Source: Delftia acidovorans NBRC 14950 (lineage in GTDB: Bacteria; Pseudomonadota; Gammaproteobacteria; Burkholderiales; Burkholderiaceae_C). From it: a stretch of DNA of 32,000 nt. Shown one piece after another: positions 1 through 14,361 of the stretch; position 1 is the first letter of the stretch; each line of letters begins with the position of its first letter. The notes under the pieces were generated by a model, which ran no database searches, was not told the origin of the DNA, and saw only the letters and a program-made list of their open reading frames with translations. The position numbers were made by a program, and so were the translations under genes. The stretch covers positions 15,567 to 47,566 of the forward strand of contig NZ_BCZP01000032.1 of NCBI RefSeq assembly GCF_001598795.1, given 5' to 3'.

Positions 1-1113
1 GGTGCCGGTCAGCGAGCACTCGATGGCCGTGCCGCACAGCTCGGAGTCCCCCTGCGAGGCATGCGGATCGCCCACGGTGAAGTTGGCCCCTGGCACGGCC
101 ACGGGGAAATACATGGTCGCCCCCTTGCCGATGCGCCAGTTGTCGATGTTGCCGCCCGTGTGGTTGGGTGGAATGGAGCTGGCCATCTCCACCTCGGCCG
201 GCGCCACGCCGATGGTGCCGAAGTGCGGGCGCACGGGAACGCGGATATTGCGCAGCACGTTTTCGTTCTTGCTGATCGTGCGGTGGTCCACGGGCACGCC
301 CGGATAGTCGATGGTCGGGTGGACCACGCCGAAGGGGTCGGTCTGCGGCGTCCAGCGGTAGTTGTAGACGGCGCGGGCCCAGTTGCGCTCGCCGGTCGCA
401 TCCACCTCGTAGATGGTGACCACCTCGCGCTTTCGGGGCTCGGTGAGCGTGTCGCCATAGTGAAAGCCCCAGTTCGCCGCCGCATTGCTGCCGAAGGTCC
501 GGCCCTTGAATTGCGGGTTGCCCGAGGGGCGTGGCACCACATCAATGATGCGCACTTCCAGCACATCGCCGGGCTGGGCGCCCTTGATGCGTACCGGCCC
601 CGTGCAGATGTGCACGCCCTGGCCTCCGCCTGCGCCGTTCTTGGCATCCATGGGACCGGCGCCCCGGCGATCGACGTTCTTGCGCTGGCTGTCCCAGTGG
701 AACACGCTCTCGGCGCCAGGGTCGCCCCGGACCATGCGTTCGGCATCGTCATTGGCATGGTGGGTCAGCGTCTCCATGGTCACGTAGTCACCCGATTCGA
801 CTTCGACCACCGGCTTGGCCGATCTGCTGAAGTAGCCCCAGAGCACGGTGCTGGCAGAGGCGGGAATGTAGTAGTGGCTGGCCATGCCCTGGCCGGCCCG
901 GGCGCCAGGCGCGCCCTGGGCAAAGGCCCGGGACGGTGCCATCGCGCCGCTGATGGCGCCGGCCGAGACCGCGCCGCCACCGACCACCATGGCGTCGCGC
1001 AGGAAGGAACGGCGTGCAACCTGGAATTCCTCGCGGATCAGCTTCTCATCGGCTGGCGAGGCACCGTGCTGGCAGCCCGGGCCGCAGATATGTTCTTGGT
1101 GGGGGATGGTCAT
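1..1113 (-). CDS. acetamidase/formamidase (FmdA/AmdA) family amidase with a twin-arginine signal; the 3' end lies beyond the window
   Basis: Absent from the ORF track because it has no stop inside the window. My translation of the reverse strand from ATG 1113-1111 gives MTIPHQEHICGPGCQHGASPADEKLIREEFQVARRSFLRDAMVVGGGAVSAGAISGAMAPSRAFAQG...HYYIPASASTVLWGYFSRS...GVHICTGP...GDPHASQGDSELCGTAIECSLTGT. AGGAG lies 8 nt upstream of the ATG. RRSFLRD plus a hydrophobic stretch plus AFA forms a Tat signal. It is clearly paralogous to the domain encoded at 2435-3706. Confidence 0.85.
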   Translation of the reverse strand, partial: MTIPHQEHICGPGCQHGASPADEKLIREEFQVARRSFLRDAMVVGGGAVSAGAISGAMAPSRAFAQGAPGARAGQGMASHYYIPASASTVLWGYFSRSAKPVVEVESGDYVTMETLTHHANDDAERMVRGDPGAESVFHWDSQRKNVDRRGAGPMDAKNGAGGGQGVHICTGPVRIKGAQPGDVLEVRIIDVVPRPSGNPQFKGRTFGSNAAANWGFHYGDTLTEPRKREVVTIYEVDATGERNWARAVYNYRWTPQTDPFGVVHPTIDYPGVPVDHRTISKNENVLRNIRVPVRPHFGTIGVAPAEVEMASSIPPNHTGGNIDNWRIGKGATMYFPVAVPGANFTVGDPHASQGDSELCGTAIECSLTGT

Positions 1114-1156
1114 CGAAAATACTCCTGCTGTTGTGGATCGGTGCCGGCAGCGCCAG

Positions 1157-1179
1157 TGTCCAGGCGAGCATGTCCAGGC
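1157..1179. promoter_or_regulatory. direct repeat TGTCCAGGC x2 (1157-1165 and 1171-1179) in the divergent amidase/araC promoter region; candidate operator
   Basis: Exact 9-bp direct repeat with a 14-bp period in the 160-bp divergent intergenic region. A partial inverted copy (TTGGACAGG) sits near 1237-1245. Confidence 0.3.
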
Positions 1180-1273
1180 CGGTTGTTCCTGCGCGCACAA
1201 AAACTTGTCGCGACTGCCATCCGGTGCGCCGGGCTTGGACAGGCTGTACGCGGGCGTTCATAGTTCGCCCCTG

Positions 1274-3706
1274 ATGCACGACGATCCAAGACGCTTTTCC
1301 ACCCACGCATTTCCCGATGCCTTGCGGCAGGCTGCGCTCAATGAGGCGCTGTCCAGGGCAGACATCCATGGCGAAGCGCCCACGCCACCGGCCACCCACC
1401 TGGCGCTGCGCAGCTCGTCACTGGGATCGGTGTTCATCACGCTGGCCACCTCGCCGCTGACGCTGCAGGCCGTGGCCAAGCGGCTGCGCGGCCCGGGCCT
1501 GCTGCTGTGCGCCTTGCTGCAAGGCAGCGCCGATGCGGTGATCGAGGACGCCGCGTTCCCGATCAAGGCCGGCTCGGCCCTGCTGCTGGAGTCAGACCGG
1601 GACTGGCAGCTGCAGTTGCCCGGCGACGGCCGCCTGCTGCTTGCGCGGCTGGAGTCCTCGAGCTTTCTGTTGCGCCTGCTGCGCTCGTGCCCGCCCGAGG
1701 CCAGGCACATCGGCGGGACAGGCGGTGTGGGGGCCATGTGCATGGCAATGGCGGCCTCACTGGCAGAGCAGATCGACACACTGGCACAGGACGATCTGCT
1801 GTCGGTGGAGGCCACGCTCACCGACATGCTGGTCACCTGCCTGACACCGCGCGCCGGCAATCCCGACCAGGAGCAGGCCGAGGCGACCGAGCCGCCAAGC
1901 GCCGTGCAGCTTGGCCATCTGCGCCGCATCTGCCGCGCCATCGAAACCCGGCTGGGCGATGCCGAGCTGTCCATCGATGCCATCGCCGACGCCGAGGGGC
2001 TGTCCACACGCTATCTGCAAAAGCTGTTCAAGGGGGCGGCCACCAGCTTCAGCACCTACCTGCGCGAACGCCGGCTGGAGCGCTGCCGCATGGACCTGAG
2101 CAACCGCTCGCTGCAGCATTTCTCCATTGCCGAGCTGTGCTTTCGCTGGGGCTTTGGCGATGCCGCCAACTTCAGCCGCGCTTTCACGGCCCGCTATGGT
2201 CTGTCCCCCAAGGCCTATCGCGCCAGTCCGGCGCGCGTGCAGGATGCGCCGCCCGGCCAGCGCGGACGCCCCTCGCCCGCCGAGAGCGCTGCGCAGGGTG
2301 CAGAACCGGCCGCAGCGCGCCTGGCACACAGCCCGTTCCAGGCCCTGCTGCGCGACCATGCACGCTACGCCCAGGCGCTGGCCCTTGTGCCCAAGCGCTC
2401 GGCGCACGCAGACAATGGCGGTGCGTCGCCCCAGCATTACTACCTTCCGGTCTCCGACAAGACCGTGCACTGGGGCTACCTGAGCCGTTCGCTCAAGCCC
2501 GTGCTTTCGGTGCGCTCGGGTGACGTGGTGACCATGGAGACGCTGACCCAGCATGCCTCGGACGACTGGGAACGCATGATCGAGGGCGATCCGGGCGCCG
2601 AAAGCGTGTTCCACTGGACCGCGGCCCAGAAGGCCGTGGACCGGCGCGGCGCGGGCCCGATGGACGCCTCGATCTACGGCCGCGGCGCGGGCGAGGGCTT
2701 CGGCGTGCACATCTGCACCGGCCCCATCTATGTGCATGAGGCCGAACCCGGCGACCTGCTGGAGATACGCATCCTCGACGTGCAGCCACGCCCCAGCTGC
2801 AGCCCCGCCCACCACGGCCGTGTCTTCGGCAGCAACGCCGCCGCCTGGTGGGGCTTTCACTACCGCGACCAGATCACGGAGCCCCGCCAGCGCGAAGTGG
2901 TCACCATCTACGAAATCGACCACGCACTGCCCGAGGAGCCCACGGCCCGCGCTGTCTACAACTACCGCTGGACGCCGCAGACCGACCCGTTCGGCGTGGT
3001 CCATCCGACCATCGACTACCCGGGCGTGCCCGTGGACCCCGCCACCATCACCCGGCGCTTTGGTGTGCTGGACAAGGCACGCGTGCCGCTGCGTCCGCAT
3101 TTCGGCATGCTGGCCGTGGCACCGCGAGAGGCCGGCCTGATCGACTCCATACCGCCGAGCTACTTCGGCGGCAACCTGGACAACTGGCGCGCCGGCAAGG
3201 GCGCGACGCTCTTCCTGCCCGTATCGGTGCCAGGCGCGCTGTTTTCGGTGGGAGACCCGCATGCATCCCAAGGCGACTCGGAACTGTGCGGCACGGCCAT
3301 CGAATGTTCGCTGACCGGCAGCTTCGAGCTGCGGGTGCACAAGCGCGCCGCGCTGGACAACCGCTTCCTTGCAGAGCTGGACCACCCTTTCCTGGAGACC
3401 GGCTCCGAATGGGTGATACAGGGCTTCAGCTTCACCGACCACCTGGCCGAACTGGGCAGCCAGGCGCAGTCCCAGGTCTATCGCAAGTCATCGCTGGAAG
3501 GCGCCATGCGTGACGCCTTCCACAAGGCAAGGCGCTATCTGATGCTGGCCCACGGGCTGGACGAGGACGAGGCCGTATCGCTGATCTCCGTGGCCGTGGA
3601 CTTCGCCGTGACGCAGGTGGTGGACGGCAACTGGGGCGTGCACGCCGTGATCAAGAAGGCGCTGTTTCCGCCGGAACTCTCGGCGTCCGCCCAGGCGGGC
3701 CCATGA
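1274..3706 (+). CDS. AraC-family regulator (N-terminal AraC-type ligand-binding-like domain plus HTH) fused in frame to an acetamidase/formamidase-family domain; about 810 aa
   Basis: Single open frame in the track (884..3706). Starting at ATG 1274 (MHDDPRRF...), the AraC HTH is encoded at about 1908-2222 (LSIDAIADAEGLSTRYLQKLFK...ELCFRWGFGDAANFSRAFTARYGLSPKAYR). A low-complexity linker follows at about 2225-2434. The amidase domain runs 2435-3703 (HYYLPVSDKTVHWGYL...GDPHASQGDSELCGTAIECSLTGS...). No in-frame stop separates the parts. The start codon is uncertain because there is no clear SD. Separate translation of the amidase from in-frame GTG 2387 cannot be excluded. Confidence 0.7.
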   Translation: MHDDPRRFSTHAFPDALRQAALNEALSRADIHGEAPTPPATHLALRSSSLGSVFITLATSPLTLQAVAKRLRGPGLLLCALLQGSADAVIEDAAFPIKAGSALLLESDRDWQLQLPGDGRLLLARLESSSFLLRLLRSCPPEARHIGGTGGVGAMCMAMAASLAEQIDTLAQDDLLSVEATLTDMLVTCLTPRAGNPDQEQAEATEPPSAVQLGHLRRICRAIETRLGDAELSIDAIADAEGLSTRYLQKLFKGAATSFSTYLRERRLERCRMDLSNRSLQHFSIAELCFRWGFGDAANFSRAFTARYGLSPKAYRASPARVQDAPPGQRGRPSPAESAAQGAEPAAARLAHSPFQALLRDHARYAQALALVPKRSAHADNGGASPQHYYLPVSDKTVHWGYLSRSLKPVLSVRSGDVVTMETLTQHASDDWERMIEGDPGAESVFHWTAAQKAVDRRGAGPMDASIYGRGAGEGFGVHICTGPIYVHEAEPGDLLEIRILDVQPRPSCSPAHHGRVFGSNAAAWWGFHYRDQITEPRQREVVTIYEIDHALPEEPTARAVYNYRWTPQTDPFGVVHPTIDYPGVPVDPATITRRFGVLDKARVPLRPHFGMLAVAPREAGLIDSIPPSYFGGNLDNWRAGKGATLFLPVSVPGALFSVGDPHASQGDSELCGTAIECSLTGSFELRVHKRAALDNRFLAELDHPFLETGSEWVIQGFSFTDHLAELGSQAQSQVYRKSSLEGAMRDAFHKARRYLMLAHGLDEDEAVSLISVAVDFAVTQVVDGNWGVHAVIKKALFPPELSASAQAGP

Positions 3707-3719
3707 AGCCCGCCCGGGA

Positions 3720-4532
3720 TCAGACCCGTGCCAGGAAACGCGCGATGCGTTGGGCAATGCGCTCGGGCTGCTCGCGGTGGGGGACGTGGCCGCCGCCGGC
3801 CACGATCTCCACCTCCACCGGGCCGCTGGCGCGGTCGCGGATGCGCTCGGGATGGACCAGGGAGCCGAACTCGTCGAGCTCTCCATGGATGGCCAGCACC
3901 GGGCAGCGCACGCGCTCCAGCGCCTCGTCCAGCCGGTAGTCTGCAAAAGGCGGGGACAGCCAGGTATCGACCCAGGCAGACAGCACCCAGGCGGCCTTGT
4001 CGCCGTGGTATTTCTCCAGGCGCGCAAGCTGGCCGGGCCGGGCGAAATCCTGTTGGGCCGCGCGAATGCCCTGCAAGGTGCGATCTTCCACAAAGGCCTG
4101 GGCGGACTCCGTGATCACCGCCTTGCACTGCGCGCCATATCGGGCCGCCACCATGGCGGCCATGCCGCCGCCCACGCTGTGGCCCAGCACAATGAAATCC
4201 CCAAGGCCCAGCCCCTGGTGCACGGCCGGGAACACGGTCTCTGCCTCCCGGGCCACAAAGCCCGGCCCCAGCGTGCCCGGATAGGGATCGGACTGGCCAA
4301 AGCCCAGCCGGTCATAGGCCAGCACATCGCGGCGCGTGGCCTCGGCCAATTGCTGCGGGAAATCGCGCCACAGCGCCACCGAGCCCAGCGAGTCGTGCAA
4401 CAGCACGATGGGCGCGCGCGCCGGGCCTTGTTCGCCTTCGCCGGCCGCCGGCGCCTGCCAGCGCCTGACGTAGATGCTGCCCTGCGGTGTGGGAATGCGG
4501 ATTTCGTTCAAGGATGCGGGGATGTCGGTCAT
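3720..4532 (-). CDS. alpha/beta-fold hydrolase
   Basis: Track ORF 3720..4802, trimmed to MTDIPASLNEIRIPTPQGSIYV.... It has the nucleophile elbow GHSVGG, a HDSLGS region and a C-terminal GGGHVPH. The upstream 90 aa of the ORF are Arg/Cys-rich junk. In-frame ATGs at 4547 and 4562 are alternative starts. Confidence 0.8.
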   Translation of the reverse strand: MTDIPASLNEIRIPTPQGSIYVRRWQAPAAGEGEQGPARAPIVLLHDSLGSVALWRDFPQQLAEATRRDVLAYDRLGFGQSDPYPGTLGPGFVAREAETVFPAVHQGLGLGDFIVLGHSVGGGMAAMVAARYGAQCKAVITESAQAFVEDRTLQGIRAAQQDFARPGQLARLEKYHGDKAAWVLSAWVDTWLSPPFADYRLDEALERVRCPVLAIHGELDEFGSLVHPERIRDRASGPVEVEIVAGGGHVPHREQPERIAQRIARFLARV

Positions 4533-4765
4533 GCACGAGGAAGGCATCGAAAAAAACTCCATGCCGGTCGGCGCCGGCCCGGCAGACATCATGCGCCTGC
4601 ATGCCGCCAGAGGGCGACACCGTGGCGACGCGCTGGGCGAAATGCGGCAGCTTTTGTCTCTCTCGGGGCAGCTTTTGCGAACCCGGGCGCGCGGGTTCCT
4701 CCGATGGTGAAAGGCCAGGCAGCGGCGTATAAGTTGAAGCCACCCCACGCACGCGAAGGCCTGCC

Positions 4766-10782: not shown

Positions 10783-11865
10783 ATGAGCCTCGTCCAGCCC
10801 TTGCCCCCCGGTCCGCTCGACATCGTCGGCGACATCCATGGAGAGTCCGAGGCGCTGGACCAGCTGCTGGGGCACCTGGGCTACGACGCGCTGGGCCGCC
10901 ATCCCCAGGGTCGGCGCCTGGTCTTCGTCGGCGACTTCTGCGACCGGGGGCCCGACAGCCCGGGCGTGCTCGCCCGCGTCGTGCCCATGCTGGAGTCGGG
11001 CCATGCGCTGGCCGTGCTCGGCAACCATGAAATCAACCTGCTGCGCGAGGATGCCAAGGACGGCTCCGGCTGGTTCTTCGACAGCCGCGTGGCCTCCGAT
11101 ACGCCCAAGTACGCGCCGTTCGCGCGCATGCCGCTGTGCGATATCCCTGACACCCTGGCCCTGCTGGAACGCCTGCCCATTGCCATGGAGCGCGAGGACC
11201 TGCGCGTGGTCCATGCGGCCTGGCGCCCGCAGCAGATCGCCATGGCGCGCGAGCTGCCGCTGGGCAGCGCACGCAGCGCCTATGACCACTACGAGGCCCT
11301 GGCCGCCCAGCAGGCCCAGGTCAACAAGGTGGCCGAGCGCATGCGTGCCGAACGCCAGCAATGGCCGCATGACCTGGAAGACCGCAACTGGCTGCCGCCC
11401 TTCCTGCCCGCGCACAGCGAGAGCGAACTGGCCAAGGCCATGGTCAATCCGCTGAAGGTGCTGACCTCGGGCGTGGAGCGCGAATGCCGCAATCCCTTCT
11501 ACGCGGGCGGCAAGTGGCGCTTCGTCGAGCGCGTGGCCTGGTGGAACGAATACGAGGATGCCCAGGCCGTGGTCGTGGGCCACTACTGGCGGCGCCTGAA
11601 CCGGGGCGGCCCGTCCTTCCACGGCGCGCAGGCCGAGAACCTGTTCGGCCAGACCGGTCCGCTGTCCTGGCACGGCCGGCGCGGCAATGTGTTCTGCGTG
11701 GACTACTCGGTCGGCGGCCGCTGGAACGCCCGCCTGGCCGGCGAGGACCCGCAGCAGCGCTTCAAGCTCGCCGCCATGCGCTGGCCAGAGCGCCGCCTGG
11801 TGTTCGACGACGGTGCCCAGGCGGACAGCGAGGAGTTTGGCGTTACGGCGGCCGCTGCCGCATAA
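10783..11865 (+). CDS. PPP-family metallophosphoesterase (ApaH/PrpA-like Ser/Thr phosphatase fold) with a C-terminal extension
   Basis: Track ORF 9268..11865, trimmed to MSLVQPLPPGPLDIVGDIHGESEAL...VFVGDFCDRGPDS...VLGNHEINLL, giving the GDxHG / GDxxDRG / GNHE motifs. The upstream part of the ORF overlaps thyA and folA in another frame. Confidence 0.85.
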   Translation: MSLVQPLPPGPLDIVGDIHGESEALDQLLGHLGYDALGRHPQGRRLVFVGDFCDRGPDSPGVLARVVPMLESGHALAVLGNHEINLLREDAKDGSGWFFDSRVASDTPKYAPFARMPLCDIPDTLALLERLPIAMEREDLRVVHAAWRPQQIAMARELPLGSARSAYDHYEALAAQQAQVNKVAERMRAERQQWPHDLEDRNWLPPFLPAHSESELAKAMVNPLKVLTSGVERECRNPFYAGGKWRFVERVAWWNEYEDAQAVVVGHYWRRLNRGGPSFHGAQAENLFGQTGPLSWHGRRGNVFCVDYSVGGRWNARLAGEDPQQRFKLAAMRWPERRLVFDDGAQADSEEFGVTAAAAA

Positions 11866-11871
11866 CACGCG

Positions 11872-14361
11872 CTAGATCCGCGGCGCGTAGCGCAGCGTCA
11901 GCAACAGCGACCTGGGCGCACCGTAGTAGTTGTTGCCCGACACCGTGTTGTAAGAAGGCACGTAGTAGCGCTTGTCCAGCAGGTTGCTGACGTTGAGCGC
12001 CACGCTCAGCTCGGGCGAGACCTGGTAGGCCACGCGTGCATTCCACAGCGCAAAGCCTGCCAGGCGGAAGGCGCGGTCGGAGCTGAGGGTGTCGGTCTGC
12101 GCATTCACGCCCGTGCCCACCGTCCAGCGGCCCAGCTCGCCCGGCAGGCGGTAGCTGCCCCACAGGCGCAGCATGTGCCGGGGCGTCCAGGTGTTGAAGA
12201 TCTGGCCCTGGTAGTCGGGGTCGGACAGGTAGCGCGTGGTGTTGTAGGTGTAGCCGGCCGCCAGTTCCAGGCCTGTGGCGACCTTGCCGGAGACCTCGGC
12301 CTCCAGGCCCTGGCTGCGCACCTTGCCCGAGGAGCGCGAGCAGTACCAGTCATCGCATGCAAAGCCGCTGTCGTAGTCGTTGACGGCGCGGTTTTTGTGC
12401 TCGTAGCGGAACACGGCCAATGCCATGTTCAGGCGGCCGTCGGCCATCTCGCCCTTGATGCCGGCCTCGTAGTTGCGGCCCTGCACCGGCTTGATGAGGT
12501 CGCCCTGCACGGTGCGCGCGGTCTGCGGCTCGAAGACGGTGGAGTAGCTGCTGTACAGCGACCAGGTGTCGTTGAGCGCATAGACGGCACCCGCGTAGGG
12601 GATGAAACGCCCCGTGGTCTTGCTGGTGGAAGAATCGCCCGATTGCGCGCGGTAGGCGAAGTCATTCCAGCCCAGGCGCCCCCCGGCGATCAGCGTGAAC
12701 GCCTGCGTGGGCCTGACACGCCAGGTGCCGTACAGGCCCTTTTGCGTGATGTCGTAGTTGCTGCGCACATCCGCGCCACGCGCGGCGATGCTTTCCATGT
12801 CCTGCCAGGGGCGGTTGTGGTCTATATCGAAGATGTTGCCGCCCGCGGTCCAGGCGCGCACGAAGCGGTCGCTGGTGGTGTAGCCAGCGTAGTTGGCGCC
12901 CAGCAGCACTTCCTGCTCCATGCCCAGCGCCTTGAAACGGCCCGACAGCGACATGTCCAGGCCGCGCTGCTGGTTGTTGAAGTCCACGCCGAAATCGCCG
13001 TAGCTCATGCCACTGCCATCGGGCTTGATAGGGCCCACGGCGCGCTGGTGCACGTTGGTGTTCTTCTCGTTCATGGCCATGCCCACCATCTTGAAGCGCC
13101 AGTCCGCATTGAAGCGGTGTTCCAGGTCGGCGAACAGCATGTTCTGGTCATTGCCTGCGCGGTTCCACATGGCGCCTGTGTAGGTGGAGCGCGGCAGGCC
13201 GATGTCGCTGCCGTCGGCAAAGCGCGGCAGGCCCACGATCATGGGGCGCGAGCGGCTGTGGCGCTGCCCCACGGCCAGGCCCACCGTGGTGCTGGCGCTG
13301 ATGTCGTAGTCCAGCGCCGCGTAGATGTTGCGCGTGCGGTCGCGCGTGTATTCGGTGAACCCGTGGCTGTAGTCCCCGTCCAGCACCACGCGGCCGCGCA
13401 GCGTGCCTTCGGCATTGAGCGGCGTGCTGGCATCCATCTGCAGGCCGTAGTGGTCATGGGAGCCGAGCTTGCCAGTGAAGACCACGGAGCGCTCGCGGCC
13501 CGGGCGCTTGCGCACCAGGTTGATCGCGCCGCCGGGGCTGCCCGCACCCTGCAGCAGGCCGGCCGCGCCGCGCAGGATTTCCACGCGGTCATAGAACACC
13601 AGCGACTCCTGCTCCCAGTTGCCCAGGCTGTAGGTATTGCGCGTGAACGGCAGGCCGTCGTACTGCAGCGAGTCCACCGCAAAGCCGCGCGCATTGATGG
13701 CCAGGCCTGCGCCCACGCCCTGCACAGCCACCATGCCGGTGGCGTTGTGGATGGCGTCGGGCAGGCTGGTCATGCCCTGGTCGTCCATGCGCTGGCGCGT
13801 GAGCACGCTGACCGATTGCGGAATGTCCTTGAGCGCCTGCGCGGTCTTGCCCAGCGTGACCGTGCCACTGGTGTAGGAGTCCGAGCCTTCGGTGACGCCG
13901 TCACGGATGCGCGTGTCGGTCACCATGACGGCCGGCAGGCCCGCCTCTGCCCCAGCGGCGGCCTGGCCGCGCGATGTGCGCACCTCGGGCAAGGGGCGCA
14001 GCGCATAGCCGCCATTGGGCTGCGCATGGGCGGCCAGCCCCGTGCCGGCCAGCAGCGCATCCAGGGCCGCAGGCGCTGCATGGTTTCCACTCAGGCCCGC
14101 GCTGCGCCTGCCCGTGATGTCGGCCGCCGTGTACGACAGCATGACGCGGCTTTCCTGGGCGAAGCGGGCCAGCGCGCCCTCCAGCGGGCCTGCCGGTATG
14201 GCGTAGCTGCGCACTTCGGAGGGTGACTGGGCCTGGGCCTGCGCGGTTTGCGGCGCAAGGGCTGCGCTGACGGCGCACAGCGCCAGCGTGGTGCTGGCAG
14301 CCAGTGCCAGCGAATGGCGCCGGAAGGCCGGTGCCGCAGTGTGAGCAAGTCGTTGGACCAT
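11872..14361 (-). CDS. TonB-dependent siderophore receptor with an N-terminal STN signalling domain (FecA/FpvA type)
   Basis: 829 aa. Signal peptide ...ALAPQTAQAQA. STN-like region YAIPAGPLEGALARFAQESRVMLSYTAADITGRRSAGLSGNHAAPAALDALLAGTGL. Plug motifs VSVLTRQRMDDQG and RGF. C-terminal ...LLLTLRYAPRI. Immediately downstream of fecR/fecI-like genes. Confidence 0.92.
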   Translation of the reverse strand: MVQRLAHTAAPAFRRHSLALAASTTLALCAVSAALAPQTAQAQAQSPSEVRSYAIPAGPLEGALARFAQESRVMLSYTAADITGRRSAGLSGNHAAPAALDALLAGTGLAAHAQPNGGYALRPLPEVRTSRGQAAAGAEAGLPAVMVTDTRIRDGVTEGSDSYTSGTVTLGKTAQALKDIPQSVSVLTRQRMDDQGMTSLPDAIHNATGMVAVQGVGAGLAINARGFAVDSLQYDGLPFTRNTYSLGNWEQESLVFYDRVEILRGAAGLLQGAGSPGGAINLVRKRPGRERSVVFTGKLGSHDHYGLQMDASTPLNAEGTLRGRVVLDGDYSHGFTEYTRDRTRNIYAALDYDISASTTVGLAVGQRHSRSRPMIVGLPRFADGSDIGLPRSTYTGAMWNRAGNDQNMLFADLEHRFNADWRFKMVGMAMNEKNTNVHQRAVGPIKPDGSGMSYGDFGVDFNNQQRGLDMSLSGRFKALGMEQEVLLGANYAGYTTSDRFVRAWTAGGNIFDIDHNRPWQDMESIAARGADVRSNYDITQKGLYGTWRVRPTQAFTLIAGGRLGWNDFAYRAQSGDSSTSKTTGRFIPYAGAVYALNDTWSLYSSYSTVFEPQTARTVQGDLIKPVQGRNYEAGIKGEMADGRLNMALAVFRYEHKNRAVNDYDSGFACDDWYCSRSSGKVRSQGLEAEVSGKVATGLELAAGYTYNTTRYLSDPDYQGQIFNTWTPRHMLRLWGSYRLPGELGRWTVGTGVNAQTDTLSSDRAFRLAGFALWNARVAYQVSPELSVALNVSNLLDKRYYVPSYNTVSGNNYYGAPRSLLLTLRYAPRI

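Follow-up and report, generated by a model that had tools for sequence, protein, structure and literature searches.

The question raised by this locus of Delftia acidovorans NBRC 14950 is whether a reading frame that encodes an AraC-type regulator and then runs on, without a stop, through a complete amidase is a real gene, and, if it is, what a transcriptional regulator does with an enzyme domain. AraC proteins normally stop after their second helix-turn-helix (HTH) motif, and in GC-rich genomes long open reading frames are possible by chance. We analyzed a window of 32,000 nucleotides (contig NZ_BCZP01000032.1, forward strand), to which all coordinates refer. An ORF scan found the frame open from 884 to 3706 on the forward strand, and a start at ATG 1274 agrees with the N-termini of homologs (MHDD/MLDDLRRFST). 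The gene, its parts and the divergent gene beside it are as follows:

1274-3706, forward strand: AraC-amidase fusion gene, a single open reading frame with a product of 810 aa and ~88 kDa and its stop codon at 3704-3706
1391-1843, forward strand: AraC_binding_2 domain (PF14525; cupin-like, FeaR-type), residues ~40-190
1982-2224, forward strand: AraC/XylS DNA-binding domain with two HTH motifs (PF12833, PF00165), residues 237-317
2225-2428, forward strand: interdomain linker of ~68 aa, low complexity, residues 318-385
2429-3703, forward strand: complete FmdA/AmdA-type amidase domain (PF03069), residues 386-810
1-1113, reverse strand: 5' part of a stand-alone paralog amidase, divergent from the fusion gene and exiting the window at its left end

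The fusion is not confined to this strain. NCBI holds an identical protein (WP_034396200.1), the same fusion is carried by 230 near-identical Delftia sequences, complete genomes among them, and its full-length homologs are 48-99% identical. Both domains are present together in >115 protein clusters formed at 90% identity (52-77% identity to the Delftia protein, 790-870 aa), and in the best 80 genome loci every fusion is full-length with its two halves in one frame. The hosts are Alpha-, Beta- and Gammaproteobacteria, of the genera Delftia, Variovorax, Aquabacterium, Pseudomonas, Methylophaga, Nitrincola, Paraburkholderia, Bradyrhizobium, Parvibaculum and Sphingobium, among others. Since one frame holds two curated domains in >100 homologs with linkers of varying length, the frame is not a chance ORF. 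The earlier note on this DNA had proposed, on condition that the frame is real, an 810-aa chimera, and this is borne out, with no lost stop: a stop codon or frameshift between 2225 and 2435 was sought in the orthologs and none was found among the >115 clusters or the best 80 loci. The chimera of AraC regulator and amidase is a genuine single polypeptide, and it is widely conserved.

The suggestion of internal initiation at GTG 2387 did not hold up. The residue at this codon is unconserved, being V, T or A in the motif LAL[VTA]PKR, there is no Shine-Dalgarno (SD) sequence, and the aligned fusions have no conserved Met ahead of the amidase domain. An amidase-only database entry, P0103 (482 aa), was considered as a split ortholog and rejected; it begins within the linker and is chimeric between the amidase domain of the fusion and the Tat paralog. 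An artefact, in which a lost stop, frameshift or misassembly had merged two genes, or in which the amidase has a separate internal start such as GTG 2387, could draw on the usual AraC end point at the second HTH, on the low complexity and low AF2 confidence of the linker and on this one entry, but it is effectively refuted, and to us vanishingly improbable, given the same fusion throughout the Delftia sequences and complete genomes, the >100 diverged homologs fused in independent assemblies, the lack of a conserved internal Met/Val or SD and the chimeric nature of P0103, which starts inside the linker. An Rfam search of the whole window gave no matches.

The earlier note also knew of no described fusion of this kind. 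This stands for papers, as none on an AraC-amidase fusion was found in the literature searched, but not for databases, where the architecture has already been named: GenBank entry ABX37592.1 is a [quoted passage not shown] and the JGI label is "acetamidase/formamidase/AraC-like DNA-binding protein." The architecture is known to databases and uncharacterized in the literature searched. The name "twin-arginine translocation pathway signal domain protein" also exists for the fusion at NCBI; its N-terminus has no S/T-R-R-x-F-L-K motif, hydrophobic region or AxA site, and it does not belong with Tat-exported proteins.

The regulator half contains the ~100-aa domain with two HTH motifs that defines the AraC/XylS family. 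This domain scored 65.3 bits to PF12833 (HTH_18; cutoff 33.6) and 43.6 bits to PF00165 (HTH_AraC; cutoff 26.6), matches the DNA-binding domains solved for RamA, Rob, SoxS, MarA and AraC, and terminates in ...KAYRAS at ~nt 2224. The N-terminal domain is the least conserved region of the protein (31-60% identity between genera). It scored 26.3 bits (E 7e-6) to AraC_binding_2 (PF14525), just below the 27-bit cutoff, and has a beta-rich fold predicted by AF2 with pLDDT of ~80-90. A canonical domain of this AraC effector type could itself sense a ligand, with the amidase then a catalytic passenger, a counterpoint to any sensing by the amidase domain. The match to the FeaR equivalog NF007243 was 90.2 bits against a curated cutoff of 199; judged by these profiles, the fusion is related to FeaR in layout and is not FeaR.

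The linker differs in length among homologs, and its indels never break the frame. It contains an R-G-x-P motif, RGRP, at nt 2261-2272, of which R330, G331 and P333 are invariant in an alignment of 22 fusions; RG.P was present in 73 of 74 fusions, in 72 of them 12-17 residues after the HTH. We considered RGRP as an AT-hook for the A-tract of the operator described below and rejected it, as the third residue is R in 26 of the 74 fusions, W in 22 and L in 18; by its sequence the motif is not a canonical AT-hook. By eye, FQALLRD of the linker resembles FQVARRSFLRD of the paralog. The idea that the linker descends from the Tat signal of the paralog was likewise rejected as unsupported, with 69 linkers and 17 Tat leaders dissimilar in a profile-profile comparison (hhalign, E=0.53). 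In a full-length AF2 model built from the 22-sequence alignment, linker pLDDT was <50 apart from a predicted helix, FQALLRDHARYAQALAL (nt ~2333-2383, residues 354-370). Because the mean pLDDT of this model was 64 and its amidase half was poor, it was used neither for fold search nor for interdomain inference.

The amidase domain opens with QHYYLPVS at ~nt 2429 and scored 100.1 bits to PF03069 (FmdA_AmdA; cutoff 27), which places it in this family. Its signature blocks are PHFG (H609), GGNLD (nt 3167-3181) and GDPHASQGDSELCGTAIE (nt 3251-3304), and the family blocks PHxG, GGNxD and GDxHAxQGDxExCGTAxE are invariant in the fusions. The blocks GVHICTGP and GDPHASQGDSELCGTAIECS are, as had been noted previously, common to the fusion's amidase domain and the neighboring paralog. 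The closest solved structure is PDB 3b9t (E=1.7e-183, residues 4-416 of the domain), and 5ubu, 2ii1, 3tkk, 2f4l and 2wkn matched with E of 5e-18 to 1e-11. To the formamidase FmdA equivalog NF045496, which has a cutoff of 500, the fusion scored 52.5 bits and the stand-alone neighbors 65-69 bits; on these scores none of them is the characterized formamidase. As a guide to the substrate, NCBIfam gave only sub-threshold formamidase matches and generic amino-acid SBP matches. The domain is 65-89% identical across genera, compared to 31-60% for the AraC half. In an NJ tree (no bootstrap) the amidase domains of 80 fusions were monophyletic; the branch that groups them with the Tat clade as their sister is very short. 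These domains have a single origin.

The neighboring paralog, which starts at ATG 1113-1111 with an SD, AGGAG, at 1126-1122 (both reverse strand), is 62% identical to the fusion's amidase domain over 362 aa. Its long N-terminal region contains HICGPGCQHG and then a twin-arginine signal, ARRSFLRDAMVVGGGAVSAGAISGAMAPSRAFA|Q, made up of ARRSFLRDA, a hydrophobic region and AFA|Q. The full-length ortholog of this paralog in locus L001 is 491 aa, and 17 loci share the conserved Tat-type N-terminus. In nearly all loci a stand-alone amidase adjoins the fusion, and these amidases are of three types: Tat-exported, cytoplasmic, and divergent (~340 aa). Many fusion loci also have an ABC transporter, with an SBP of the SBP_bac_3 family, and RidA; across the fusion loci, the fusion itself is the only conserved regulator gene. 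The following elements lie between the paralog and the fusion gene:

1182-1208, forward strand: candidate operator GTTGTTCCTGCGCGCACAAAAACTTGT, a CTTGT direct repeat, 22 bp apart, flanking GCGCACAAA
1155-1160, reverse strand: -10-like hexamer GACACT of the inferred Tat-amidase promoter, which sets the operator at ~-60 to -34
1236-1264, forward strand: sigma-70-like promoter candidate of the fusion gene, TGGACA-17-CATAGT

The candidate operator is conserved in divergent intergenic regions, with the 27-bp consensus CTTGtc-N5-GCGCACAAA-NN-CTTGt. The pattern has one site in the 32-kb window (0 expected), and 70 sites were found in 61 of 81 related loci, compared to ~1 in shuffles; the remaining 20 loci had none at the threshold used. 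Its orientation is fixed toward amidase, SBP, Rieske or TauD genes, and it is located at ~-60 to -34 of amidase or ABC-transporter promoters, with a TAnnnT-like -10 element, conserved across loci, 22-27 nt past the proximal half-site. A reverse search with the exact operator pattern found the fusion gene beside the site in 10 of 16 metagenome contigs and a type-B SBP in 1 more. These findings show an operator that keeps a constant promoter geometry and that is associated with the fusion gene in both directions of search. In Delftia it sits centrally in the 160-bp intergenic region, so that the promoter it serves there is assigned from the other genomes. The promoter candidate of the fusion gene was the single site found by a promoter scan (0.1 expected), and Delftia and Variovorax loci L002-L004 share the conserved sequence CATAGT(T/G)C..CCCTGATG. 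As this promoter ends 10 nt upstream of ATG 1274 and there is no SD, the fusion mRNA may be nearly leaderless. Transcription is predicted to start at ~1271 on the forward strand for the fusion gene and at ~1148 on the reverse strand for the Tat-amidase gene.

Based on the fact that the fusion is kept in many proteobacteria beside amidase and transporter genes that share the operator, it is probably an amide-sensing regulator, as yet uncharacterized, that uses its enzyme domain for the sensing. The reading that we favor, with reasonable but not strong confidence, is that the protein acts as a one-component activator for amide catabolism, with the amidase domain as its substrate-recognition module, which is possibly still catalytic. 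The predicted binding site of the fusion is the 27-bp operator, which overlaps with the -35 region of the neighboring amidase promoter; from there the fusion would switch on transcription when the amide substrate is present. Its target in Delftia would be the gene for the Tat-exported periplasmic paralog, and in other lineages the cytoplasmic paralog together with the SBP_bac_3 ABC importer and RidA. The substrate, likely a small or amino-acid-like amide, would be recognized by the C-terminal amidase domain, which is itself paralogous to the regulated enzymes. We infer that it is the fusion that occupies the operator, and that it does so as an activator rather than a repressor. In the Tat-type loci the enzyme is expected to be periplasmic and the sensor cytoplasmic, and the inducer would therefore have to cross the inner membrane.

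The state of the amidase domain bears directly on this proposal. No usable published catalytic residues for PF03069 were found in the literature searched, and since they are undefined there, an intact active site is judged solely by conservation, by which the domain is apparently intact. Of the polar residues that are conserved across 75 stand-alone amidases, all except D549 and D784 are kept in 98-100% of 80 fusions (D417, E422, D430, H479, D494, E497, R506, E541, R607, H609, N634, D636, D661, H663, Q666, D668, E670, T674, E677, E708, T709, and Q781). With almost all of them kept, the domain probably still binds the amide and may hydrolyze it, which would make the fusion a trigger enzyme. A role as sensing module or trigger enzyme would fit this retention, the adjoining stand-alone amidases and the conserved operator. 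Judged by the same residues, the domain may be catalytically active. More tentatively, and as possible rather than likely, we suggest that it works as an amidase and that its turnover of the inducer forms part of the signal. In one version, a flux-sensing activator would destroy its own inducer and so act as a self-resetting switch; in another, the amidase would yield an acid or ammonia product that is read by the N-terminal cupin domain.

The fusions also have features of their own in this domain. Of the 185 columns that are invariant across both enzyme clades, Tat and cytoplasmic, 117 are invariant in the fusions too; fusion-specific changes at enzyme-invariant positions are H to Q426, G to A614 and T to F631 (beside GGNxD), while L648 is found where stand-alone enzymes have Y/F, and an insertion, DASI[FY]GRGAGEGF, is specific to the fusions. 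Further fusion-specific residues are F476, which goes with the insertion, D624 and L656. Compared with the Tat enzyme of the same genomes, the domain has evolved at a somewhat higher rate (75-79% identity vs. 82-86% for the Tat enzyme in Aquabacterium, for example). The substitutions and insertion could reflect altered specificity or lost turnover. In the latter case the domain would bind the amide, perhaps with a metal, as a pure ligand-binding domain comparable to the GATase1-like domains of GbdR/CdhR-type AraC regulators, and the replacements at 426, 614, 631, and 648, the inserted loop and the faster evolution are all in keeping with such a pseudoenzyme sensor. However, pseudoenzymes normally lose some conserved polar residues, and here all but two of those shared by the stand-alone amidases, the divergent clade included, have been kept. 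In addition, position 631 is H in PDB 5ubu and hence not family-invariant, which suggests that it belongs to a specificity pocket and not to the catalytic machinery. We consider a sensor devoid of turnover rather doubtful.

Less probable still, in our estimation, is that the AraC_binding_2 domain senses the effector and the amidase is active but merely co-expressed with the regulator, or makes the acid or ammonia that is sensed. This would suit an N-terminal domain that is a canonical AraC effector/dimerization module, related to that of FeaR and with a confident predicted fold, as well as the near-complete set of polar residues in the amidase. The N-terminal domain, however, evolves fastest and scores below its Pfam cutoff, and a simple passenger leaves unexplained why a fusion of single origin is found in three proteobacterial classes beside three kinds of stand-alone amidase.

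The amide-sensing activator that we favor has partial counterparts among known systems. In Escherichia coli Ada a C-terminal O6-alkylguanine-DNA methyltransferase domain comes after an AraC-type HTH; AdaA-AlkA fusions are also known. As in the Delftia protein, the HTH in these proteins is not C-terminal and an enzyme domain follows it, and in Ada chemistry is coupled to transcriptional activation. Unlike the fusion, Ada is a suicide methyl acceptor in DNA repair that is activated by self-methylation at an N-terminal zinc site; it contains no amidase and plays no part in the catabolism of small molecules, and there is no relation between the domain families. PutA, BirA, and NadR are trigger enzymes with DNA-binding domains, in which the availability of substrate sets the regulatory state. 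They too combine a metabolic enzyme and a DNA-binding domain acting on genes of the same pathway in one polypeptide (for the fusion, this is predicted), but they have RHH or winged HTH folds and other enzymes, and are mostly repressors.

Within the AraC family, GbdR, CdhR, ArgR/SouR, and the GlxA-type DJ-1/PfpI-AraC proteins also join the DNA-binding domain to an enzyme-derived domain, in their case an amidotransferase-like sensory one. These GATase1-like regulators control the catabolism of nitrogenous compounds, a role predicted for the fusion, and the GbdR profile scores weakly against the fusion's HTH. However, their enzyme-like domain is N-terminal, of another fold and catalytically inactive, whereas that of the fusion is C-terminal and of the FmdA/AmdA fold, with its conserved polar residues retained. 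FeaR, the activator of tynA and feaB, is the fusion's best NCBIfam match (residues 83-318), has the same AraC_binding_2 and HTH layout and regulates a periplasmic catabolic enzyme, as proposed here, but it ends after the HTH, with no enzyme domain. Conversely, PDB 3b9t, a structural-genomics entry ("Twin-arginine translocation pathway signal protein"), is collinear with the whole amidase domain and belongs to the subfamily of the Tat-exported neighbor, but it is stand-alone and signal-bearing, with no DNA-binding part; it has no published function, and the sole mention of it found in the literature was in a JCSG methods paper. In the amidase operon of Pseudomonas aeruginosa, dedicated amide sensing by AmiC/AmiR induces an amidase and an ABC transporter, as we propose for the fusion. 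So does the sensing at ANTAR-regulated FmdA_AmdA/SBP_bac_5 operons for L-amino acid amides (bioRxiv 10.1101/2024.02.22.581678), where the enzymes are FmdA_AmdA proteins. Both of these systems use a sensor of the periplasmic-binding-protein fold and antitermination, whereas the fusion would use an amidase paralog as its presumed sensor and act as an AraC activator; in addition, the SBP belongs to family SBP_bac_5 in the ANTAR operons and to family SBP_bac_3 at the fusion loci.

In AraC regulators the DNA-binding domain is almost always C-terminal and the ligand is sensed by a small N-terminal domain. Here, a conserved family of single origin has a complete 47-kDa enzyme domain after its DNA-binding domain, and this added domain is a paralog of the enzymes that are apparently regulated. 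If it senses or processes the substrate, the fusion would be a clean natural case in which a regulator acquired its sensor by taking in a copy of the enzyme it targets, and a member of the AraC family would join the short list of trigger enzymes. Should turnover of the inducer prove to be the signal, this would be a new AraC-family class of trigger enzyme spanning the Alpha-, Beta-, and Gammaproteobacteria, and a previously unrecognized amide-scavenging regulon with a periplasmic (Tat) and a cytoplasmic (ABC importer) version. The operator, promoter geometry and target genes define a testable regulon for an uncharacterized subfamily of amidases, of which 3b9t, with no function assigned, is the only structure. 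The system may yield an amide-responsive biosensor, and it may have a bearing on the use of amides by Delftia and soil proteobacteria.

The 810-residue protein encoded at window positions 1274-3706 has the layout proposed in an earlier note, an AraC regulator fused in frame with an acetamidase/formamidase domain, and ORF reading and Pfam searches placed all of its parts at the positions named there.

Features of the fusion gene and the divergent amidase gene (window nucleotides, or residues of the fusion where stated)
884-3706, plus strand: open frame (ORF reading)
1274, plus strand: ATG of the fusion gene (product 810 aa); the N-terminus, MHDDPRRFST, aligns with homolog starts
Residues 40-190, plus strand: AraC_binding_2 (Pfam, 26.3 bits, just under the 27-bit cutoff)
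Residues 237-317, plus strand: HTH_18 (Pfam, 65 bits), with HTH_AraC also matched
2224, plus strand: end of the HTH, KAYRAS (translation)
Between HTH and amidase domain, plus strand: linker of 68 residues, Ala/Pro/Arg/Gln-rich (translation)
2429, plus strand: start of the amidase domain, QHYYLPVS (translation)
Same frame as HTH_18, plus strand: FmdA_AmdA (Pfam, 100 bits vs. a cutoff of 27)
1236-1264, plus strand: candidate promoter of the fusion gene, TGGACA-17-CATAGT, ending 10 nt before the ATG (sequence)
1182-1208: candidate operator, GTTGTTCCTGCGCGCACAAAAACTTGT (match to the shared intergenic pattern)
1160-1155, minus strand: putative -10 of the amidase gene, GACACT (sequence)
1126-1122, minus strand: Shine-Dalgarno of the amidase gene, AGGAG (sequence)
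1113, minus strand: ATG of the amidase gene (sequence)
1113 to the left window edge, minus strand: stand-alone amidase paralog, 62% identical to the fusion's amidase domain

NCBIfam models gave only sub-threshold matches to the fusion (FeaR, 90 bits vs. 199; formamidase, 52 vs. 500). One GenBank record of the same protein (KFJ12289.1, window 1274-3703) bears the title "twin-arginine translocation pathway signal domain protein", which was carried over from paralogs resembling PDB 3b9t; the fusion has no Tat signal.

A lost stop codon or an indel as the origin of the open frame is excluded by its homologs. A search of 5.8 billion proteins, with matches clustered at 90% identity, returned more than 115 clusters (52-77% identity to the query, 790-870 aa), and every one contained both HTH_18 and FmdA_AmdA except P0113, a fragment truncated at a contig end, and P0103. 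Similarly, when one genome was scanned for each species, the best 80 loci all proved to encode full-length fusions (48-99% identity), the 99% match being Delftia acidovorans (locus L002). These loci derive from Delftia, Variovorax, Aquabacterium, Rubrivivax, Pseudomonas, Halopseudomonas, Nitrincola, Methylophaga, Herminiimonas, Paraburkholderia, Caballeronia, Cupriavidus, Pandoraea, Azoarcus, Pseudoxanthomonas, Parvibaculum, Afipia, Bradyrhizobium, Methylobacterium, and Sphingobium. The linker differs in length and sequence among homologs and the two halves are always in frame. At NCBI the exact protein (WP_034396200.1) belongs to a cluster of 230 near-identical Delftia sequences, including those of complete genomes. 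The fusion is thus genuine and its orthologs unsplit. Only about five full-length representatives remained in a library clustered at 50% identity, and the fusions are one compact family.

P0103, a 482-aa protein from an ENA metagenome contig of 4.6 kb, was considered as a split ortholog and rejected as a chimera. Its first half shows no difference from the linker and amidase domain of the fusion, whereas the remainder corresponds to the Tat paralog and is identical to the readable part of the window copy. The entry probably arose when assembly collapsed the two 62%-identical paralogs, and could mislead searches for split orthologs.

Internal initiation at GTG 2387, also raised previously, was not borne out by the alignment, in which homologs have V, T, or A at this codon and the stretch ahead of the amidase domain holds no conserved Met. 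Within the linker, R330, G331, and P333 are invariant in a 22-sequence alignment, and the RG.P motif occurs in 73 of 74 fusions, 12-17 residues past the HTH in 72. It was rejected as a canonical AT-hook because its variable residue is R in only 26 fusions. The AF2 model has a helix at 354-370, the rest of the linker being of low confidence, and a profile-profile comparison gave no support for descent of the linker from the Tat leader of the paralog.

The fusion mRNA may be leaderless or nearly so, as suggested by the promoter-like element lying 10 nt from the ATG, the lack of a Shine-Dalgarno sequence in window 1236-1276, and the conservation of CATAGT(T/G)C..CCCTGATG in the Delftia and Variovorax loci (L002-L004). 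Directly downstream, and convergent with the fusion gene, is an alpha/beta-hydrolase gene (window 3720-4640, minus strand; 11760-12680 in locus L001), which is found in Delftia and a 77%-identical metagenome relative, is absent from the wider fusion family, and is probably unrelated to the amidase module.

The amidase domain is collinear with 3b9t (E = 1.7e-183), which came from structural genomics under the name "Twin-arginine translocation pathway signal protein"; the domain is related only distantly to the family's other solved structures (5ubu, 2ii1, 3tkk, 2f4l, and 2wkn). A neighbor-joining tree was built from amidase sequences extracted from the loci, 80 of them fusion domains and 75 stand-alone. 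The fusion domains were monophyletic, and that the fusion arose only once is well supported. Outward from the fusions lie Tat-type (21 tips), cytoplasmic enzymes of about 413 aa (25 tips), and divergent enzymes of about 340 aa (23 tips), although the position of the Tat clade as sister is not well supported, the tree having short deep branches and no bootstrap.

The amidase half is the slowest-evolving part of the protein, with 65-89% identity between genera vs. 31-60% for the AraC half. The Tat and cytoplasmic enzymes have 185 columns with an invariance of at least 97%, and in 117 of these the fusions are just as invariant. Polar residues conserved in all 75 stand-alone proteins are, with two exceptions, retained by 98-100% of the 80 fusions (D417, E422, D430, H479, D494, E497, R506, E541, R607, H609, N634, D636, D661, H663, Q666, D668, E670, T674, E677, E708, T709, and Q781), the exceptions being D549 (57%) and D784 (85%, otherwise N). 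At other enzyme-invariant positions the fusions have fixed changes, namely H to Q426 (ETLT-Q-HA), G to A614, and T to F631 immediately ahead of GGNLD, along with D624, L648, and L656, and they carry an extra loop, DASI[FY]GRGAGEGF. Since 5ubu has H at position 631, this residue is not catalytic across the whole family. Read most simply, the fusions have an intact core site within a remodeled pocket, where intact means conserved and not proven active, as no catalytic residues for the family were found in the literature searched.

A stand-alone amidase gene adjoins the fusion almost everywhere (81 loci), and no other regulator gene recurs. Type A is the Tat-exported paralog, divergent from the fusion in Delftia, Variovorax, and Rubrivivax, and on the same strand directly upstream in Aquabacterium, Pseudomonas kuykendallii, Nitrincola, Methylophaga, and Halopseudomonas. 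In type B the paralog is cytoplasmic and 413 aa long (MKHHTLPVSPETVHWGY); it generally shares an operon with genes for an SBP_bac_3 binding protein and a fused permease-ATPase, and often with RidA as well (e.g., Paraburkholderia fungorum, Bradyrhizobium, and Variovorax paradoxus). Type C is an amidase of about 340 aa, only 38-40% identical, sometimes beside polysaccharide-deacetylase-like, Rieske, or TauD genes (e.g., Caballeronia, Parvibaculum, Afipia, and Cupriavidus).

The long N-terminus of the window paralog (MTIPHQEHICGPGCQHG...EEFQVARRSFLRDAMVVGGGAVSAGAISGAMAPSRAFA, followed by QG) reads as a textbook twin-arginine signal after a conserved Cys/His motif. Its n-region is unusually long, with about 35 aa ahead of the twin-arginine motif (window 1000-1113, minus strand; L001 7557-9032; type-A loci L002-L022), and contains H-[IV]-C-x-x-[GTS]-C-x-H (HICGPGCQHG), conserved from Delftia to Methylophaga, which might serve for metal binding or for a (proofreading) chaperone. 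In two Herminiimonas loci and a MAG labeled Terriglobales (L019 2291-3745, L020 5748-7178, and L021 1095-2519), HICxxGCxH is kept, ARHSLRAN replaces ARRSFLRD, and a polar Gly/Lys-rich stretch replaces the hydrophobic region; the Tat signal looks decayed, and the enzyme is therefore probably back in the cytoplasm.

The divergent intergenic regions share CTTGT-N6-GCGCACAAAAA-CTTGT, and the candidate operator is its sole match in the 32 kb (none expected from shuffles). With a tolerance of 5 substitutions over the 27 positions, we found 70 sites in 61 of the 81 loci vs. 0-2 in shuffled loci, with the consensus CTTGtc-N5-GCGCACAAA-NN-CTTGt. Sites lie upstream of the Tat-amidase gene in type A, of the SBP gene, the first of the ABC operon, in type B, and of the 340-aa amidase and neighboring operons in type C, and their orientation with respect to the downstream gene never varies. 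The target strand has a -10-like TAnnnT element (e.g., AATAAT, CATAAT, TACGAT, or GACACT) at +22 to +27 past the proximal half-site, which would place the operator at about -60 to -34, overlapping the -35 region as do the classical sites of AraC-type class II activators.

Reciprocally, the exact pattern CTTGT-N6-GCGCACAAA-NN-CTTGT matched 16 contigs in a metagenome collection. In ten the fusion gene lies no more than a few hundred bases from the site, one reaches a type-B SBP gene just where its readable stretch ends, one ends on the target side of the operator, and four are low-GC and look like chance matches. Operator and fusion gene thus predict each other. The type-C loci of Caballeronia and Paraburkholderia (L025-L032 and L040) have 2-3 operator copies each. 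These lie before the ~340-aa amidase, before a divergent SBP gene, and, as weaker core matches, between the fusion gene and a polysaccharide-deacetylase-like gene that is itself followed by a second SBP/ABC set; the regulon there may be larger and multi-operon.

The best-supported model is that the fusion would act as a one-component activator of an amide-catabolic module, its AraC domain binding the operator and its C-terminal amidase paralog recognizing the substrate. One regulator family and one operator would serve both versions of the module, one with a Tat-exported enzyme and no importer in the locus, the other with a cytoplasmic enzyme and an ABC importer. The C-terminal domain could either hydrolyze the inducer, as a trigger enzyme, or only bind it, as a pseudoenzyme, and the N-terminal cupin-like domain could either sense, for example, the product or only dimerize. 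The SBP falls in the polar amino-acid class, and L-amino acid amides are the ligands in another FmdA_AmdA/ABC system (bioRxiv 10.1101/2024.02.22.581678), which offers only a hint to the ligand of the fusion. Delftia acidovorans is classically acetamide-positive, which is a lead and not evidence.

Comparable arrangements are known: Ada has an AraC HTH followed by an enzyme domain, GbdR/CdhR-type and GlxA-type AraC proteins have sensor domains derived from enzymes, and PutA, BirA, and NadR are trigger enzymes. To our knowledge, none of these contains an FmdA/AmdA amidase or has a paralog of its target enzyme C-terminal to the AraC domain. The earlier note knew of no described AraC-amidase fusion, and full-text literature searches found no paper on one, although the architecture is already named in public annotation. 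The AraC-amidase fusion is real, widespread, and uncharacterized in the literature searched, and is directly testable through the operator and regulon outlined here.
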